Below are positions 13,700-55,915 of a stretch of DNA of 64,000 nt, one piece after another; the first letter of the stretch is position 1, and each line of letters opens with the position of its first letter. A program made the translations under genes and the position numbers. Origin of the DNA: a virus. Lineage: Duplodnaviria > Heunggongvirae > Uroviricota > Caudoviricetes. A model generated the notes under the pieces. It ran no database searches. It worked only from the letters and a program-made list of their open reading frames with translations, and was not told where the DNA came from. The stretch covers positions 1-64,000 of the IMG/VR virus record IMGVR_UViG_3300033993_002218; one strand, written 5' to 3'.

Positions 13700-14431
13700 T
13701 TACTTTTTCAGAGTGGGCATCAGACGCAGACCATCACGGAAGATGGCATTTTTCATTTTACGCCTCACATCACTGAGGGTCTCCATAGTAGCAACGGTAT
13801 TTGCAAGAAACATTTTTTCAAGTTCCTCACGGATACGTTCAACCGAAACCTTGTTCAGCATTTCAGCAGCAAAATCGCTATTGACTGCATCCCAAGTTTG
13901 TCCTTCAATATTAAACCCTTTGGTAATGTGAAACCGCAGTGCCCTCATAACCCTCAGACCATCTTCTGCAATTCGGTCAGTAGGATTACCCACAAACCGA
14001 AGAAGATTATTCTCAAGGTCTTCACGACCACCGAAAGGATCCACCAGTTCCCCATCCAGAATTGCCATCGCATTCACGGTAAAATCCCGTCGTTGCAGGT
14101 CATCCATCAGGGTTCCGGGAAGAACAAAATCAGGACGACGACCATCACTACTCGGACCATCTTTCCGTGCCAGAACAAAGTCAGCAACAGTAGTTCTTTT
14201 CCTCACAGGATGCCACGTTGGAACTTGTGCCCGAACAGTGAAGAACTCAGGAGTTTCTAGAAAAACCTCAAATCCATCAACTTTCAAAACATTCACTAAG
14301 GTAGCAAATGCCTCATCGGCATTTGCGAACATCTTTGGATTTATCGGGATTGCAACGAAATCAACATCCTTGGAATCTACACCAAGAAACTTGTCTCGGA
14401 CTGCACCACCGACTTCTGCGAATTGGAACAT
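13700..14431 (-). CDS. tRNA nucleotidyltransferase (CCA-adding) / poly(A) polymerase family, head-neck only (243 aa)
   Basis: N-terminal VGGAVRD...D.D and RRDFTVNAMA motifs match class II CCA-adding enzymes. Confidence 0.8.
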   Translation of the reverse strand: MFQFAEVGGAVRDKFLGVDSKDVDFVAIPINPKMFANADEAFATLVNVLKVDGFEVFLETPEFFTVRAQVPTWHPVRKRTTVADFVLARKDGPSSDGRRPDFVLPGTLMDDLQRRDFTVNAMAILDGELVDPFGGREDLENNLLRFVGNPTDRIAEDGLRVMRALRFHITKGFNIEGQTWDAVNSDFAAEMLNKVSVERIREELEKMFLANTVATMETLSDVRRKMKNAIFRDGLRLMPTLKK

Positions 14432-22699: not shown

Positions 22700-23518
22700 T
22701 CACTTACCAGTCAGACCACCAGGCAGGAAATCCATCTTAGCACCGTTGATAATCACCATCTTTTGGATGCTACCATTCTCAAATGCTGCTTTGAGGATTT
22801 CGTTACGTTGATACTCCAGAGATTGAGTCGTCACAGTAGAAGCAAGTGCCTTATTCTCTTCTGCTTTCAGTTGAGCAGTGCGAGTTTTCACCTCTTGCTC
22901 TTTATTTGCCGATTGGGCAGCAACCACACGGTTCACAGAGGCAACCAGTGCGTCAGGCAGGTCTGCTTTCACAACCACAACGGATTCAATATCAATCTTA
23001 CCGGCAAGGTTGTTCTTCTCCAGAGACAGATTCAGATTCTGTTTGATAGTTTCTTGAATCTTATCCAGACTGCTGTTCACTTCCAGAGCAGGATATTCAT
23101 CAACCGATTGGTTCACGGCAGAAGTAATCAGACGTTTGATGAAACTTGCCATCAGTTCAATCTGACCATTCTCACTGACACCGTGATTGGTAATATCATA
23201 ACCAGTGTAGAAATTATACAGACTGGTGGGAGACAGACTATAAGTAACCACAACATCCATATCTTTCATAATGGTGTTGTCTTTGGTCTTGGGAGTCAGA
23301 TCACTGGATTGTACTGTGATCTTACGAGTGTTGAATACCTTAATAGAACCAAAACCATCGTATTTGATACCAGGAGTGAGAACTTCATTCTTCACCTGAC
23401 CATCAAATCCAATATAGAGACCATTTTCACCAGTGTTAATCGTAGTGAATTGACCAGCAGTGAGAATCAGTGCCAGAAAAACACCGCCAACACCAATAGC
23501 AATTTTTCCAGTAGACAT
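22700..23518 (-). CDS. SPFH / band-7 (prohibitin-stomatin-HflKC family) membrane protein (272 aa)
   Basis: N-terminal transmembrane helix followed by an SPFH-like core and a long Ala/Lys/Glu coiled-coil tail. Confidence 0.8.
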   Translation of the reverse strand: MSTGKIAIGVGGVFLALILTAGQFTTINTGENGLYIGFDGQVKNEVLTPGIKYDGFGSIKVFNTRKITVQSSDLTPKTKDNTIMKDMDVVVTYSLSPTSLYNFYTGYDITNHGVSENGQIELMASFIKRLITSAVNQSVDEYPALEVNSSLDKIQETIKQNLNLSLEKNNLAGKIDIESVVVVKADLPDALVASVNRVVAAQSANKEQEVKTRTAQLKAEENKALASTVTTQSLEYQRNEILKAAFENGSIQKMVIINGAKMDFLPGGLTGK

Positions 23519-30131: not shown

Positions 30132-30449
30132 TCAATCCCTCCTTCGGGTTCTTGTGGATATTGTACCGTTACCGTCACCGTAACCAAAACCGTTACCGTT
30201 ACCGTAACCGGCACCGGCACCGTAACCATCACCGGAACCGTAACCGGCACCGTGTCCGTAACCGGAACCGTAACCGGAACCGGAACCGTAACCGGAACCG
30301 GAACCGTAACCGGAACCGTCACCGCCATAGTGACCAAAACCGTTACCGTAACCGTCACCGTCACCGTAACCAAAACCGTAACCGTAACCGGCACCGGCAC
30401 CGTAACCATCACCGGAACCGTAACCTACGGGATAAAAGTATTCAGTCAT
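30132..30449 (-). CDS. Gly/Tyr-rich low-complexity protein, array member 6 (105 aa)
   Basis: MTEYFYPVGYGSGDGYGAGAGYGYGFGYGDGDGYG... Starts at the ATG after the AAGGAGGGATTGAT RBS. The ORF-track upstream extension (VTVTV...) is the cassette and RBS read in frame. Confidence 0.6.
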   Translation of the reverse strand: MTEYFYPVGYGSGDGYGAGAGYGYGFGYGDGDGYGNGFGHYGGDGSGYGSGSGYGSGSGYGSGYGHGAGYGSGDGYGAGAGYGNGNGFGYGDGNGTISTRTRRRD

Positions 30450-30450
30450 A

Positions 30451-30702
30451 TCAATCCCTCCTTCGCGTTCTTGTGGATATTGTACCGTCACCGTTACCGT
30501 AACCGTCACCGTAACCGTAACCGTCACCGTAACCGTCACCGTAACCGTCACCGTTACCGTAACCGTAACCGTAACCGTCACCGTCACCGGAACCGTAACC
30601 GTTACCGTCACCGTTACCGTAACCGTAACCGTAACCGTAACCGGAACCGGAACCGTAACCGGAACCGGAACCGGAACCTACGGGATAAAAGTATTCAGTC
30701 AT
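30451..30702 (-). CDS. Gly/Tyr-rich protein, array member 5 (83 aa)
   Basis: MTEYFYPVGSGSGSGYGSGSGYGYGYGYGNGDGNG... Same RBS. Stop-T-ATG coupling. Confidence 0.6.
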   Translation of the reverse strand: MTEYFYPVGSGSGSGYGSGSGYGYGYGYGNGDGNGYGSGDGDGYGYGYGNGDGYGDGYGDGYGYGDGYGNGDGTISTRTRRRD

Positions 30703-30703
30703 A

Positions 30704-30949
30704 TCAATCCCTCCTTCGCGTTCTTGTGGATATTGTACCGTCACCGTAACCGCAACCGTCACCGTAACCGTCACCGTAACCGTCACCGTAACCGTTACCG
30801 TATCCGTCACCGTAACCGGCACCGACACCGTCACCGTAACCGTCACCGTTACCGTAACCGTTACCGTAACCGTCACCGTAACCGTAACCGGAACCGGAAC
30901 CGTAACCGGAACCGGAACCGTAACCTACGGGATAAAAGTATTCAGTCAT
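30704..30949 (-). CDS. Gly/Tyr-rich protein, array member 4 (81 aa)
   Basis: MTEYFYPVGYGSGSGYGSGSGYGYGDGYGNGYGNGDGYGDG... Confidence 0.6.
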   Translation of the reverse strand: MTEYFYPVGYGSGSGYGSGSGYGYGDGYGNGYGNGDGYGDGVGAGYGDGYGNGYGDGYGDGYGDGCGYGDGTISTRTRRRD

Positions 30950-30950
30950 A

Positions 30951-31250
30951 TCAAGACCTCCTTCGGGTTCTTGTGGATATTGTACCGGAACCGTAACCGT
31001 AACCGAAACCGAAACCGTCACCGTTACTGTAACCGTAACCGGCACCGACACCGGCACCGTAACCGAAACCGTAAACGCCACCGTCACCGTAACCGTAACC
31101 GAAACCGGAACCGTCACCGCCATAGTGACCAAAACCGTTACCATTACCGGAACCGTCACCGTCACCGTAACCGGCACCGTAACTGTGTCCGTCACCGTAA
31201 CCGTTACCGGCACCGGAACCGTAACCTACGGGATAAAAGTATTCAGTCAT
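30951..31250 (-). CDS. Gly/Tyr-rich protein, array member 3 (99 aa)
   Basis: MTEYFYPVGYGSGAGNGYGDGHSYGAGYGDGDGSGNGNGFGHYGG... Confidence 0.6.
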   Translation of the reverse strand: MTEYFYPVGYGSGAGNGYGDGHSYGAGYGDGDGSGNGNGFGHYGGDGSGFGYGYGDGGVYGFGYGAGVGAGYGYSNGDGFGFGYGYGSGTISTRTRRRS

Positions 31251-31251
31251 A

Positions 31252-31503
31252 TCAAGACCTCCTTCGGGTTCTTGCAGATATTGTACCGTTACCGTAACCG
31301 GAACCGTAACCGTAACCGCCACCGGAACTGTAACCGTAACCGTTACCGTTACTGTAACCGTAACCGTAACCGTAACCGGAACCGTCACTGTAACCGTAAC
31401 CGGAACCGTCACTGTAACCGTAACCGTAACCTTCACCGTAACCGTAACCGGAACCGGAACCGGAACCGTAACCGTTACCTACGGGATAAAAGTATTCAGT
31501 CAT
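31252..31503 (-). CDS. Gly/Tyr-rich protein, array member 2 (83 aa)
   Basis: MTEYFYPVGNGYGSGSGSGYGYGEGYGYGYSDGSGYGYSDGSGYG... Confidence 0.6.
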   Translation of the reverse strand: MTEYFYPVGNGYGSGSGSGYGYGEGYGYGYSDGSGYGYSDGSGYGYGYGYSNGNGYGYSSGGGYGYGSGYGNGTISARTRRRS

Positions 31504-31504
31504 A

Positions 31505-31612
31505 TTAATCCCTCCTTCGGGTTCTTGTGGATATTGTACCGGAACCGTAACCGTAACCGTCACCGGAACCGTAACCGTTACCGGCACCTACGGGATAAGA
31601 GTATTCAGTCAT
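31505..31612 (-). CDS. Gly/Tyr-rich protein, array member 1 (35 aa, shortest)
   Basis: MTEYSYPVGAGNGYGSGDGYGYGSG... It is the first gene after the terminator at about 31626-31657. GGAG lies 8 nt upstream. Confidence 0.5.
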   Translation of the reverse strand: MTEYSYPVGAGNGYGSGDGYGYGSGTISTRTRRRD

Positions 31613-36690: not shown

Positions 36691-38064
36691 TCAGACAATT
36701 ACAGAAGCATTGTATCGGACTTCATCAAAGGTATACTCTTTGACGATTTCACCATTCTCAAACACAGTCTCAAGAACTTCTTCAGCATCAGTCCTACCTT
36801 CCAAGTCAGTGAAATAACCTTCATCATTACGATAGAGTGTTACACGACCTTTCTTGGATTCTTTACCCATATCGGTAATTGGACTCTTATACACATCTCT
36901 CTGTTCTCCTTTAACTTCAATTGAAGAACACTTCATTGCAAACTTCTGAGTATCACGGTCAATACTTTGAAGAAGTTTACCACCTTGACCGAAGGCAATG
37001 TTGTCTGCAGAATATCCAGCAGTCATTGCTCTATAAAGAATTCGGTCAATCGTATCTTGAGTGATACCATCACCTTGAATAATACGGACGTGATTAAGAA
37101 CTTTGAATCCTTTATCATTTACCGTGTGTCCATAGTGACTATCAAGAATCTTAAGGCACTCAGTTACAACTTCTGGAGGATAACCACTATCAGGACGAAC
37201 CACAAGAGTTGCACCAGAGTTGATTACATCATCCTTGAGAACAGTGCCCCACATATGGCAGGCATCGTAAATGTTATAACTATCACTTACGCAAGCAAAG
37301 AGACTGTTAGGTTTGCCGTAGATTTTTACCATATTACGGTAAGAATCTTCTTCACCCTTTCTACCCCAAGAAGTCACGGTGCTGTGTTCCATAGCAGGAA
37401 TAGAGAATCCTGCAATATCAATGTTGTAGTATTCTTTACCATAAAGCAAAGCACTTACCGTATCAGTTCCCTGAAAGTTTACAAGGTGTGCGAGACCACC
37501 AATACCAGCAGACTCGAAGGAAGATACACCACGAGCACCGAAATCGTGAAGTTTGAACTCAATCGTTCTGGGATCTCCAGTTTTCATCAAGTAATCGTGA
37601 ATGATTCTCTTACTTTCGTAGGAGTTGGTAGCAACAGTAGTTCCGTACCAAATACTCCTGAGAAGTGCAGTCTCAATATAACTTGTCAACCAAGCACATT
37701 GAGGGTCAGTATTTTCAACAGTAGCAAGAACATTCTTCACAGGAATTACAGAACCTTCAGGAACTGCTTTGATGCGAATAGGCAACTTACCACCATATTC
37801 ACGAAGAATATATTCCCAACCTTCACGATTGAAAGGTTCTCCGTGTCCCCCAGCAATTAGTTCAGCAAAATCAATATCTTCCTGAGTAATAGGATTAGAA
37901 AGATACTCCTTTAGAAAGATTTGAAGACCGAAGAAAACAGTTTGTTTCCAACTACCTCCACGACTTTCAACATAGGAATATACGTTCGTAGTCCCTTCGG
38001 GATACTGATTGTATTGCGAAAACTTGTAAGAATCTGTGTTTGTGATAATCGTTTTGTTAATCAT
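36691..38064 (-). CDS. nadV: nicotinamide phosphoribosyltransferase (NAMPT/NadV), 457 aa
   Basis: The N-terminus ...TDSYKFSQYNQYPEGTTNVYSYVESRGG and overall length match the NAMPT family. Shine-Dalgarno TTAAGGAGTTTAAA-ATG. Confidence 0.9.
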   Translation of the reverse strand: MINKTIITNTDSYKFSQYNQYPEGTTNVYSYVESRGGSWKQTVFFGLQIFLKEYLSNPITQEDIDFAELIAGGHGEPFNREGWEYILREYGGKLPIRIKAVPEGSVIPVKNVLATVENTDPQCAWLTSYIETALLRSIWYGTTVATNSYESKRIIHDYLMKTGDPRTIEFKLHDFGARGVSSFESAGIGGLAHLVNFQGTDTVSALLYGKEYYNIDIAGFSIPAMEHSTVTSWGRKGEEDSYRNMVKIYGKPNSLFACVSDSYNIYDACHMWGTVLKDDVINSGATLVVRPDSGYPPEVVTECLKILDSHYGHTVNDKGFKVLNHVRIIQGDGITQDTIDRILYRAMTAGYSADNIAFGQGGKLLQSIDRDTQKFAMKCSSIEVKGEQRDVYKSPITDMGKESKKGRVTLYRNDEGYFTDLEGRTDAEEVLETVFENGEIVKEYTFDEVRYNASVIV

Positions 38065-39088: not shown

Positions 39089-40108
39089 TTATACTCCGGT
39101 AAAATAGTTGATGATTTCGTAATGGTCTTCGTAGCACTCACTTGGATTGATTTTGGAAATTGGAATCCATTTTGCAGATGTAGCATCACTTCCACCTTTG
39201 ACTTTTGGAAGTTCTCCGTTAGGAAGTTTGATGTGAAATGCATGAGTGATTGTCCTACCTCTGGTGCTTCGTTCAATCGCATCAAAGACTTTTGCTTCTG
39301 CTATATTACCACGAAGAACTGGAGCAGGCACCTTGAGTTGAGTTTCCTCCCTCACTTCCCGTATCATAGCATCCTCTAGGGACTTGTCGCTTAAAGCGTC
39401 TAGGAACCCTCCAGGAAGGGCAAGGAGACCCTTTCCAGGTTCTGCCCGACGACGAATCATCAGAATGTGCCCACACTGCACTACGACGGCATCCACCGTC
39501 ACGAAGGTTGGGGGATATGGGAAAGAAGCATACTGAGACTTATATTTTTCAACAAAATCAATCTCTCGGAGAATTTGGTCGTAATCCTCTGTCTTAGAAA
39601 ACTTATTGAGAAACTCCAGAACTTCTACTGGAATGACACTCTTAATAAAGTTTGGGTTGTAGTCCTCTTTGAAGTAGAGTTTTCGGATTTGAGATGCACT
39701 CAGTTCTTCAATCAAAGGGACTTCAATTAGGTCCCACTGAGGGAACATATCAAGATAGAAAGAAGTCTCATCTTTCTTGTATCCAATAATTCCAACTTTA
39801 ATGTCTTCAAAGGGATTGATTTTATTCACAATACTTTGAACTCTAGATACCCAAGCATCATTGTTGTAGATGGTATCTTGAATTGGATGAATGCTATAAC
39901 TAGCATTTACCATCATTAAAGTTTCGTTGATTAAATATTCCCGTTCATCATAAGAGAATGGGTTCTTAAAAGTTCTGGGTTGATTTGCAGACCCCACAAT
40001 AATCGCAGTGTGTTCTGCAAGTTCTGTTGCCCGTTTGATAATCTCTAGGTGAGCATTATGGAACGGTTGAAACCGACCAATAAAAACAATTACATCATAT
40101 TTTTTCAT
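39089..40108 (-). CDS. natV: bifunctional NMN adenylyltransferase / Nudix ADP-ribose pyrophosphatase (NatV/NadM-Nudix type), about 339 aa
   Basis: FIGRFQPFHNAHLEI is the (H/T)xGH nucleotidyltransferase motif. GGFLDALSDKSLEDAMIREVREETQL is a Nudix box. The start is trimmed to MKKYD behind TAAGGAGTTTAGAATT-ATG. Confidence 0.85.
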   Translation of the reverse strand: MKKYDVIVFIGRFQPFHNAHLEIIKRATELAEHTAIIVGSANQPRTFKNPFSYDEREYLINETLMMVNASYSIHPIQDTIYNNDAWVSRVQSIVNKINPFEDIKVGIIGYKKDETSFYLDMFPQWDLIEVPLIEELSASQIRKLYFKEDYNPNFIKSVIPVEVLEFLNKFSKTEDYDQILREIDFVEKYKSQYASFPYPPTFVTVDAVVVQCGHILMIRRRAEPGKGLLALPGGFLDALSDKSLEDAMIREVREETQLKVPAPVLRGNIAEAKVFDAIERSTRGRTITHAFHIKLPNGELPKVKGGSDATSAKWIPISKINPSECYEDHYEIINYFTGV

Positions 40109-40225
40109 AATTCTAAACTCCTTAGAATGTTGTGTTGTTAGAACGTCTATCGTTCTAATGTATGTATTATAATGGAAAAGGGGGGCACCTGTAAAGTGCC
40201 CTTGTGCCAGTTGTTCAAGTGTCCT
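40109..40225 (-). promoter_or_regulatory. intergenic cassette (type A) upstream of natV
   Basis: attataatggaaaaggggggcacctgtaaagtgcccttgtgccagttgttcaagtgtcc. -10 at 40166-71. Confidence 0.55.
40138..40158 (-). promoter_or_regulatory. perfect 8 bp inverted repeat (TTAGAACG-tctat-CGTTCTAA) in the natV leader, between the -10 and the Shine-Dalgarno
   Basis: Seen directly. Candidate operator or leader hairpin. Confidence 0.4.
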
Positions 40226-40290
40226 CAAATAAGTGCTTTGTTTTTTCTTTGAGTTCTTTTATAAGGTCATCCCTGATAATTTCTTGTGGT

Positions 40291-52569: not shown

Positions 52570-52783
52570 CTACATCCACTCGGGAAAACTCCCAGTAATC
52601 ACCAAGGTCTTTTTTATTATAAATTGTGTACTCATCGGGTTTATTTAATTCTGAAGAATTCACTGTTGCAGTTACAACTTCCAAATCAATTTCAGTTTCA
52701 TAGAACATACCCCCAGAATCTGTAACTACTTCCATATTTTCTGGATACTCTTTCAGTTTTTCAATCAATTCTGCAATAGTCAT
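52550..52783 (-). CDS. hypothetical protein (77 aa). MTIAELIEKLKEYP family, paralogs at 54165..54392 and 56787..57002.
   Basis: ORF track. Confidence 0.5.
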   Translation of the reverse strand: MTIAELIEKLKEYPENMEVVTDSGGMFYETEIDLEVVTATVNSSELNKPDEYTIYNKKDLGDYWEFSRVDVDVLLLY

Positions 52784-53019
52784 AGTGCCTCAAGTTCATT
52801 AATAAGAGTCAAAAGTTCATCCACATAAATCACACTATCTCCTCCATACATTCTAGCATAAAACTCGTCCATATTGGGGTCTGGTGGAAGAGAAGATGAG
52901 TATTGATTGATGATTTCTTTGATTGTATGAATAAGAAGTTTGGGTTGAGACAAATCTTTTTCCTTATCCATATGGGCATAAAGAACTTTTTTTGCTTGTT
53001 CGGTTTTGTAATTAGTCAT
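52780..53019 (-). CDS. hypothetical protein (79 aa)
   Basis: ORF track. Confidence 0.45.
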   Translation of the reverse strand: MTNYKTEQAKKVLYAHMDKEKDLSQPKLLIHTIKEIINQYSSSLPPDPNMDEFYARMYGGDSVIYVDELLTLINELEAL

Positions 53020-53025
53020 AAGTCT

Positions 53026-53187
53026 TTAAATAGTATGATACGAACTTGGGTGTTCATTAATATAAGCAATCGCTTTCTTAATATCTCCATTTGTTGAGTA
53101 TAATGCCTTCTTGCAATCCATTATCCCGGCACCAGTTATTTCACGCAACTCTTTAATTAACTTAGGGTCTTTATGAGGTTCAGTCAT
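53026..53187 (-). CDS. EF-Ts N-terminal (EF-Tu-binding, UBA-like) domain mimic, 53 aa
   Basis: Hand-translated [73 protein letters not shown] matches the EF-Ts signature (E. coli ...[29 protein letters not shown]...). ATGA overlap upstream. Confidence 0.6.
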
Positions 53188-53393
53188 TTCAAGTTATCCA
53201 TAAGAAACTGTTTGTAATCACCTTGTCCGTTATAATAGTTGGAATTATACTCTTTCCAACTATCTTCATCTTCTGTGGTTTCGGGCAACCACTCCTTTAG
53301 TAGTTTTATCATTTCTATGACAAACCTTGGGTCGTGTAGTCCTCCCGTTTTTTTAAGATAATAGAAAAAGAAAGATTCTTTTTTTATACTCAT
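53184..53393 (-). CDS. hypothetical protein (69 aa)
   Basis: ORF track. Confidence 0.45.
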
Positions 53394-55330: not shown

Positions 55331-55460
55331 TCTTCTTATAAAACTCTATTTTAAGTTGAGTAATGAGTAAATCAACTTTATCTTCAATACGAGTAAGTCG
55401 TTCCTCAATCGTATCTATACGATACTCATCAATTGCTTGTTTTTTTATTTCGTAAATCAT
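55327..55460 (-). CDS. hypothetical small coiled-coil protein (about 44 aa)
   Basis: Hand-translated MIYEIKKQAIDEYRIDTIEERLTRIEDKVDLLITQLKIEFYKKND. Confidence 0.3.
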
Positions 55461-55915
55461 AGTTTTATAAAGTGAAATTCACCATCTTGTTTTGTTTTAC
55501 CCCAGAGAAATTCATTTGAATCTATATCATATCCAGCATCTCTGGAATAGTAATTAATACCATCAAACTTCAAAAATGTGGAAACATAAGCATTTCTCTT
55601 GGGTATGATACAATTATCATTTATACCAATCCAAGAGTTATTTACATACTCAAAAACAATCTCACAAGATTTGGTATTTGTAAGATTATTATAAGGTGTC
55701 ATAATAACATTCTCACCAGACACGGATAATTCCAATGTTGTTGCCCGATAAGGTTTTTCTTCCCCATCAATATCATACCAACTCTTTGAGTATAACATTC
55801 CGTCAGGAAGTTCTTCAAATTTAATATGAATATGTGCCCAAAGTGGTGGACTGTTAAATGCTTGCTGTTGGTTAGAATAATTACCAATCAATTTTACTTT
55901 GAAATCTTCAATCAT
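55457..55915 (-). CDS. hypothetical protein (152 aa)
   Basis: ORF track. Confidence 0.55.
   Translation of the reverse strand: MIEDFKVKLIGNYSNQQQAFNSPPLWAHIHIKFEELPDGMLYSKSWYDIDGEEKPYRATTLELSVSGENVIMTPYNNLTNTKSCEIVFEYVNNSWIGINDNCIIPKRNAYVSTFLKFDGINYYSRDAGYDIDSNEFLWGKTKQDGEFHFIKL

Follow-up and report, generated by a model that had tools for sequence, protein, structure and literature searches.

A stand-alone EF-Ts N-terminal domain protein of an uncultured cyanophage, a possible non-catalytic ligand of host EF-Tu

The N-terminal domain of the translation elongation factor EF-Ts sits on helix D of EF-Tu (PMC9825190). In the M. tuberculosis complex, EF-Ts residue R13 of helix 1 bonds EF-Tu P114 and E155, and K24 of helix 2 bridges D144 and D145; the R13A substitution abolishes the EF-Tu:EF-Ts complex, and R13 and K24 belong to the small set of residues shared by distant EF-Ts proteins (PMC9529903). 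Helix D is a contact site common to EF-Ts and the C-terminal domain of ribosomal protein L7/L12, which recruits ternary complexes to the ribosome (PMC9825190, PMC5770553). Nucleotide exchange and GDP release require other parts of EF-Ts, namely the core subdomain N with D80 and F81 and the C-terminal helix (PMC3556154, PMC8807479). EF-Tu is a hub of phage-host conflict: it is cleaved by Lit and type IV Thoeris, is a sensor component in Avs7, is ADP-ribosylated by toxins and is borrowed by phage Q-beta, whose polymerase takes up the complete host proteins EF-Tu and EF-Ts as subunits. The cleavage sites of Lit and type IV Thoeris lie in switch I of EF-Tu (R45, R59 / G59-I60) (10.1101/2024.10.24.620036). 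The closest phage precedent is gp247 of Caulobacter phage Colossus, a 98-aa EF-Ts fragment regarded as a putative translational modulator and reported to comprise core subdomain N with the catalytic Phe81 (PMC3556154). In the literature searched, gp247 was the sole related discussion; there was nothing on cyanophages and no phage-encoded protein targeting helix D or the EF-Ts docking site.

We analyzed a window of 64,000 nucleotides (positions 1 to 64,000 of the IMG/VR virus record IMGVR_UViG_3300033993_002218), in which a short ORF had been predicted to be a near-exact copy of the EF-Ts N-terminal, EF-Tu-binding domain (TS-N). The ORF list places it on the minus strand, with 53 codons, an ATG start and a TAA stop; the plus strand of the same interval is riddled with stops. 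The 53-aa product given in the original prediction, which named no strand, is the exact translation of this minus-strand ORF. A six-frame HMM search identified it as the sole TS-N ORF of the window. Like gp247, its product is a phage-encoded EF-Ts fragment; the two differ in that the window protein is the docking domain only and has no catalytic residue. The likeness to Q-beta lies in a phage exploiting the EF-Tu/EF-Ts pair, but in this case the phage, a DNA phage, itself supplies the EF-Ts fragment. The proposed analogy with RNA phages is not supported: Q-beta replicase uses whole EF-Tu and EF-Ts, for which a T4-like DNA cyanophage has no counterpart. Coordinates of the ORF, its parts and other genes of the window are collected in Table 1.

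Table 1. Positions of the TS-N ORF, its parts, its neighbors and other genes in the window
Feature	Position	Strand	Evidence or remark
Stand-alone EF-Ts N-terminal (TS-N) domain protein	53026..53187	-	ORF list, homology, purifying selection
Three-helix TS-N core, residues 8-45 (helices 8-18, 22-31, 36-45)	53053..53166	-	AF2 model, Foldseek
Family-specific N-terminal motif M-T/N-E/K-P-H-x-D/N-P, residues 1-8	53164..53187	-	Alignments
Tail HPSSYHTI, residues 46-53, conserved aromatic-His element	53029..53052	-	Alignments, low pLDDT
ATGA overlap of the TS-N start codon with the TGA stop of the upstream 69-aa ORF (53184..53393)	53184..53187	-	
79-aa ORF, 6 nt downstream of the TS-N ORF	52780..53019	-	Synteny, IMG/VR scan
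CCA-adding/poly(A) polymerase family tRNA nucleotidyltransferase	13700..14431	-	39 kb from the TS-N ORF
SPFH/Band 7 family protein	22700..23518	-	Pfam E 1.7e-19
Six tandem paralogous small genes	30132..31612	-	35, 83, 99, 81, 83 and 105 aa
Nicotinamide phosphoribosyltransferase (NAMPT)	36691..38064	-	Nearest: Synechococcus phages B3/B23, 63%
Cytidylyltransferase-like NMNAT fused to Nudix	39089..40228	-	
CpeT-like phycobilin lyase/antenna gene	55457..55915	-	Pfam CpeT E 4e-14; phrog_488 E 2e-32

The window encodes NAMPT, NMNAT-Nudix, a CCA-adding enzyme, a primase fragment, a DEAD-box helicase, virion proteins and a CpeT-like phycobilin lyase, the last of which marks the phage as a cyanophage. 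The helicase shares 71% identity with its counterpart in the nearest isolate, Synechococcus phage S-SRM01 (241 kb; Kyanoviridae, genus Serangoonvirus), which came from a freshwater reservoir; the other good helicase matches are all from T4-like cyanophages. Megablast of the 4 kb around the TS-N ORF against 50,697 phage records returned no match. Judged from the kinship of the helicase, the cyanophage genes and the absence of a megablast match in phage records, the source is an uncultured, freshwater-type T4-like cyanomyovirus. Its NAMPT and NMNAT-Nudix genes make up an NAD+ salvage pair that resembles the phage NAD-reconstitution pathways countering NAD-depleting defenses.

Sequence comparison bore out the assignment of the product to the UBA-like N-terminal domain of EF-Ts. 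In a phmmer search against PDB sequences the top match was E. coli EF-Ts, residues 6-39 (E 1.1e-8, identity 23/34), followed by the EF-Ts of M. tuberculosis, T. thermophilus and mitochondria; generic UBA domains and L7/L12 appeared only at E 0.01-1. The NCBIfam tsf model TIGR00116 matched with E 3.9e-13 over profile positions 6-43 of 293, and the score of 49.3 bits is below the curated full-length cut-off of 104.05, as expected because the protein is a fragment of full-length tsf. The Pfam EF-Ts_N model PF25025, a search that had been proposed with the original prediction, gave E 1.9e-5 and 25 bits, which is below its gathering cut-off of 33.2; several members of the TS-N family have a precomputed PF25025 assignment. 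Pfam UBA_8 (E 2e-5) was also under its gathering score. The canonical UBA model PF00627 gave E 0.014 and 15.7 bits against a threshold of 22.4, which does not place the protein in that family, and ubiquitin is not expected as a ligand in a cyanobacterial host. A PHROGs search of the ORF returned no significant family. Among 1.8 billion library proteins, 3135 matched at E<=1e-3, overwhelmingly EF-Ts, and a profile of the phage family matched E. coli EF-Ts at E 1.8e-15, compared to 3.5e-3 for the best non-EF-Ts UBA domain. The product of the TS-N ORF is a true homolog of the EF-Ts N-terminal domain, specific with respect to generic UBA domains. The description of it as a near-exact copy is too strong, since identity to E. 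coli EF-Ts is 57-62% over 37-40 structure-aligned columns, or 68% (23/34) by phmmer, and reaches at most ~70% for any cellular EF-Ts. The stretch KELRE-TGAG-MDCKKAL hardly departs from the cellular consensus, unlike helix 3 and the two termini.

The predicted fold agrees with this assignment. An AlphaFold2 (AF2) model had a pLDDT of 85 overall and above 90 over residues 11-40, with the three helices listed in Table 1. Foldseek overlaid it on the EF-Ts N-domain of 4PC1, 1EFU, 3MMP and 7VMX, which are crystal structures of EF-Tu:EF-Ts and of Q-beta replicase, with an rmsd of 0.5-0.8 Å over 37-40 residues, so that the three-helix bundle is superposable on EF-Ts residues ~1-54. A second AF2 model, based on a more diverse alignment, had the same fold. 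The tail is not confidently modeled (pLDDT 43-45 for residues 51-53), and its model was no better when distant members were added to the alignment. The core holds Arg15, the TGAG-I-M loop and Lys26, which form the EF-Tu-contacting face in EF-Ts; by the offset of the phmmer alignment, R13 and K24 of M. tuberculosis EF-Ts map to Arg15 and Lys26. The bacterial EF-Ts N-domain (residues 1-54; E. coli 1EFU/4PC1) thus shares with the window protein the three-helix fold, the KELRExTGAGxMDCKKAL stretch and the Arg and Lys contacts. In contrast to that domain, the window protein stands alone as 53 aa and has its own EPHxDP start, a Tyr after KKAL and an aromatic tail.

The protein stops at residue 53, where the EF-Ts core would start, and a Pfam search found no match to the core family PF00889. 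No remnant of a tsf core was detected downstream of the ORF in either the ORF list or the six-frame HMM search. The core and dimerization domains are absent, as originally stated, and Pfam and NCBIfam found no C-terminal module either. Without core subdomain N (D80/F81) and the C-terminal helix, the protein is expected to have no guanine-nucleotide exchange activity on EF-Tu, in agreement with the claim that the protein cannot be an exchange factor (PMC3556154, PMC8807479).

Protein databases contain about a dozen homologs of 49-80 aa with 89-94% identity. Distant full-length members, all of 49-56 aa, are P0020 (62%), P0030 (49%) and P0161-P0163 (43-51%). Ten loci from ten different metagenomes were found in IMG/VR (L005-L014, 68-100% identity), and further copies in two large ENA/JGI contigs and one Logan contig, which brings the count for the ORF to at least 13 related-phage contigs, from different metagenomes. 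Independent sampling of relatives through the helicase yielded short contigs only. Family length is held at 49-59 aa down to 43% identity, and the start and the stop region are also conserved. Pairwise dN/dS is 0.05-0.29 over the first 47 codons (dS 0.45 and dN 0.02 in the comparison with L012). All close relatives retain the ORF, and the genes next to it vary from contig to contig (synteny table). Judging by these patterns of substitution and retention, the ORF is a functional gene under purifying selection, and the idea of a conserved stand-alone gene stands, with S-SRM01 lacking it. Over the ~38 informative positions, identity to picocyanobacterial EF-Ts is 53-57%, no higher than to other bacteria, and does not single out a recent capture from the host.

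Conservation is unevenly distributed along the protein. Residues P4, H5, L10, I11, L14, R15, C25, K26, A28, L29 and G34 are invariant in the family, and E3 and P8 are nearly invariant in members down to 43% identity. In a comparison of phage versions against 242 cellular-type sequences, the part of the window clade from helix 1 through the loop to helix 2 (positions 10-29) tracked the cellular consensus almost exactly. The family-specific parts are the EPHxDP N-terminus, which has no counterpart in the different start of the cellular consensus, residue 30 after KKAL, which is Tyr, Phe or Cys in the family versus Thr, Ala or Val in cells, and everything after helix 3, where PSSYH, RSWW or DNTWHY tails stand in the place of the LR(E/K)KG linker of cellular EF-Ts. 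The face that leads into the core in EF-Ts has diverged in the phage family. Tyr30 was initially taken as phage-exclusive, a view that was dropped in favor of "rare in cells": a scan of 185,579 species genomes with the pattern [ML][DE]CKKAL[YFC]x[TSH] yielded seven loci, of which six are full-length tsf genes, one of them from a Prochlorococcus, and one is a stand-alone 58-aa ORF. In distant clades the near-universal TGAG is replaced by T(D/N/E)A(P/S) and MMD by LLE, changes that could reflect a changed partner; R15, K26 and K27 are kept. Positions I22 and M23 stay hydrophobic across the family, and R15 and K26 are invariant in every sequence-detected phage version, including the 33-43% identical ones.

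The TS-N ORF and the 69-aa and 79-aa ORFs that flank it are part of a long, tightly packed run of co-directional small ORFs, and the ATGA overlap with the 69-aa ORF suggests translational coupling inside this array. On the minus strand between 49000 and 57000, most small ORFs begin with Met-Thr-(Glu/Asp/Asn) because their start overlaps the stop of the gene before as ATGA(C), a sign that translation is coupled systematically across the array. A promoter and terminator scan gave signal no higher than the shuffled expectation. Neither of the two flanking ORFs was matched by Pfam, PHROGs or NCBIfam profiles. In viral contigs the 79-aa ORF is always positioned directly after the TS-N ORF (synteny table), and in an independent IMG/VR scan the TS-N ORF was found just upstream of it in 6/6 testable contigs. 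L007, L008, L013, RSP15 and L016 have the TS-N ORF but no 79-aa ORF. The 79-aa ORF product is a possible candidate partner of the TS-N protein, the link being weak because the contigs carrying both ORFs are close relatives.

In S-SRM01 the helicase gene is followed by ~60 small hypothetical genes, and the TS-N ORF of the window lies at the equivalent place, ~6 kb downstream of the helicase. No TS-N ORF was found by HMM search in the syntenic 41-kb region of S-SRM01 or by tblastn anywhere in that phage. Within the syntenic region, at L038 37770-39389, the annotation gives a translation initiation factor 2 gene (252 aa) and a peptide deformylase gene, by which cyanophages use this hyperplastic small-gene region to carry accessory genes related to translation. 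The gene for the same CCA-adding enzyme as in the window lies one gene upstream of the TS-N ORF in two relatives (L001 8681-9421 and L002 9173-9421), and the two genes may belong to a translation-apparatus module.

Stand-alone or nearly stand-alone TS-N proteins are also encoded, independently, by other phages. Ralstonia phage RSP15 has an unannotated 70-aa TS-N ORF with a Cys-rich tail (L003 2447-2659, corresponding to about 110782-110994 of NC_030948.1), located between ORF136 and the ssDNA-binding protein gene, near regA. A 343-kb jumbo-phage contig encodes the 70-aa TS-N protein P0159, and a related 19-kb contig was found, both with a YDERGWEPN tail. Megaphage LR745208 encodes a 105-aa TS-N protein with an N-terminal extension. 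The 59-aa "Elongation factor Ts-like protein" of Sinorhizobium phage phiN3 (BFVD A0A0F6WCQ0) was matched by fold comparison only, at a weak E of 0.5, and was not reached by BLAST. The RSP15, P0159 and LR745208 proteins are similar to the window protein in being short and having one TS-N domain with the R, CKKAL and G kept; RSP15 and P0159 also have Tyr after KKAL. These three and the phiN3 protein differ from it in being 30-50% identical and in having other termini, among them the YDERGWEPN tail, the Cys-rich tail and a coiled-coil N-terminus. The domain itself is well known, uncharacterized precedents exist in other phages, and some database entries already have EF-Ts labels; what is new is the variant, with its stand-alone form and phage-specific termini.

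Weak similarity to L7/L12 was observed as well: PF00542 matched the window protein at E 2.8e-4 (21.6 bits vs 25.9) and TIGR00855 at E 9e-3 (16.4 vs 84.4), and one relative is labeled L7/L12 by JGI. Like the TS-N domain of EF-Ts, the C-terminal domain of L7/L12 is small and helical and binds EF-Tu at helix D (PMC5770553, PMC9825190). Unlike L7/L12, the window protein has neither the L10-binding/dimerization N-terminal domain nor a hinge, and EF-Ts is a far better match. An identity as ribosomal L7/L12 was rejected because the scores are under the cut-offs and the N-terminal domain is missing.

Most tblastn matches in the phage collection were cellular tsf genes in contaminated or unverified records and were excluded from the phage TS-N count. 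For example, OQ572403.1, "UNVERIFIED Pseudomonas phage Y1" (L037 1462-2361), contains a full-length bacterial tsf of 299 aa, and several other "phage" records matching the query are likely host contamination. Most short "EF-Ts N" proteins in large protein libraries are truncated or frameshifted cellular tsf and were rejected as family members. The metagenomic proteins P0031, P0036, P0038, P0042 and P0045 (98-195 aa) have two or three tandem TS-N domains and no EF-Ts core, which suggests that the domain is re-used as a module outside EF-Ts. The long proteins among the top matches (600-1175 aa), which have two TS-N stretches, are probably polyproteins of the plastid PETs type.

The reading that we tentatively prefer is that this small phage protein, being the EF-Ts N-terminal domain only, docks on EF-Tu helix D without causing exchange, competes there and dampens or re-tunes EF-Tu recycling. 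The protein, probably expressed early, would attach to helix D in the G domain of host EF-Tu, as the domain does within EF-Ts. Arg15 of helix 1 and Lys26 of helix 2 would form salt bridges or hydrogen bonds to EF-Tu and the Ile22-Met23 loop would provide a hydrophobic contact. Having neither subdomain N (Asp80/Phe81) nor the C-terminal helix, which expel Mg2+/GDP, the bound protein would not exchange nucleotide and would instead take up the site on which both EF-Ts and the L7/L12 C-terminal domain depend. As a net result, EF-Tu recycling and recruitment of ternary complexes would be re-tuned or dampened during host take-over.

We infer EF-Tu binding, competition with EF-Ts and L7/L12 and a physiological consequence; binding to host EF-Tu is plausible from the protein sequence because the docking face tracks the cellular consensus after long divergence and in unrelated phages, as expected if the highly conserved EF-Tu is still the constraint. 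The weak but consistent similarity to the L7/L12 C-terminal domain fits the known shared helix-D motif. Several points speak against a simple EF-Tu competitor. EF-Tu is among the most abundant cell proteins, so that a stoichiometric competitor would have to be expressed very highly or bind with a much higher affinity than is expected of an isolated N-domain. Blocking EF-Tu would also affect the phage, which itself depends on translation. Simple EF-Ts mimicry leaves the EPHxDP N-terminus, the aromatic residue after KKAL, the aromatic-His tail and the loop changes of distant clades unexplained, and the PF25025 score is under the curated cut-off.

The same docking on helix D could serve a protective purpose, keeping EF-Tu-directed toxins or effectors off or acting as a decoy for proteins that recognize the EF-Ts N-domain; we consider this unlikely. 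A mechanism of this kind has some precedent, since the Tre-Tu ADP-ribosyltransferase toxin anchors on helix D and addition of EF-Ts largely prevents EF-Tu modification in vitro (PMC9825190), and EF-Tu is recurrent in defense through Lit, type IV Thoeris and Avs7 (PMC13581612, 10.1101/2024.10.24.620036). The location of the gene in a mosaic, fast-turnover small-gene array and its absence from the syntenic region of S-SRM01, as is often the case for accessory counter-defense genes, are compatible with protection, as is the NAD-salvage pair of the same phage. However, none of these three acts at helix D: Lit and type IV Thoeris cleave within switch I, and Avs7 holds EF-Tu by domains II-III. As helix D and switch I are different sites, direct occlusion of the Lit and Thoeris sites is not expected, and the shielding from Lit that had been proposed is structurally unlikely. 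PrrC-like systems, named in the original prediction as EF-Tu-targeting, do not belong here: PrrC is an anticodon nuclease acting on tRNA. No helix-D-directed defense is known in cyanobacteria, Pfam/PHROG annotation around the TS-N ORF contains no defense-related neighbor, and a shield would face the same stoichiometry problem as a competitor. We give an equally small chance to re-use of the TS-N fold as an interaction module for a partner other than EF-Tu, either a phage protein such as the 79-aa neighbor or a host protein. UBA-like three-helix bundles are generic interaction modules, and the family-specific N- and C-terminal motifs, the loop changes in distant clades, the invariable linkage with the 79-aa ORF in contigs that have it and the metagenomic non-EF-Ts proteins with multiple TS-N repeats are all in line with such a partner. 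A new partner would allow drift, yet positions 10-29 match the EF-Ts consensus and the contact Arg and Lys do not vary even between unrelated phages. By profile, moreover, the family is 12 orders of magnitude more similar to EF-Ts than to any other UBA domain, and the 79-aa ORF is missing next to the TS-N ORF in the contigs and phage named above.

A helper role, in which helix-D binding alone loosens guanine-base contacts and the protein is a weak "mini-GEF" or an EF-Ts cooperator that speeds EF-Tu recycling, appears very improbable. It could draw on the contribution of the N-domain contact with helix D to nucleotide release in EF-Ts (Wieden et al. 2002, as cited in PMC9825190) and on the company of other cyanophage translation helpers, which are the peptide deformylase and the IF2-like gene of S-SRM01 and the CCA-adding enzyme present in the window and beside the ORF in relatives. 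But the protein lacks Phe81/Asp80 and the C-terminal helix, by which GDP release is mainly driven (PMC3556154, PMC8807479), and such a helper would compete with the far more efficient host EF-Ts. Finally, the ORF is short, and many short database proteins named "EF-Ts N-terminal" are frameshifted or truncated cellular tsf, which would suit a non-functional, decaying fragment of a captured host tsf or a spurious ORF. This explanation is effectively refuted by the low dN/dS, by the conservation of start, stop region and length in clades as distant as 43% identity, by the occurrence in at least 13 contigs from different metagenomes, by the tight packing with the ATGA overlap and by the lack of a tsf core remnant downstream.

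If the preferred helix-D binding is true, a virus has retained only the "address label" of a cellular factor, which would represent a new principle of host takeover or counter-defense and provide a minimal, easily synthesized probe or inhibitor of EF-Tu recycling and L7/L12 recruitment. If the protein does not bind EF-Tu, it is merely another small UBA-like phage ORF product. It is also possible, if doubtful, that the window clade and the RSP15, jumbo-phage and megaphage versions constitute a phage-wide family of EF-Tu effectors, EF-Ts/L7-L12 docking mimics that seize helix D and whose termini add affinity or a second partner. Such a family would be the first described class of phage proteins acting directly on the nucleotide-exchange/ribosome-recruitment site of EF-Tu, with throttled host translation or disarmed EF-Tu-directed immunity as the outcome. 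The hypothesis is directly testable because the family is small and conserved and occurs in several phage lineages unrelated to one another.

Elsewhere in the window, the products of the six tandem paralogous genes start with MTEYFYPVG, contain a long low-complexity Gly-Tyr-Gly-(Ser/Asp/Asn) repeat and end with GTISTRTRRR(D/S). Each of the six genes is preceded by an AGGAGG ribosome-binding site, and the block has a GC content of ~50%, compared to ~37% around it.
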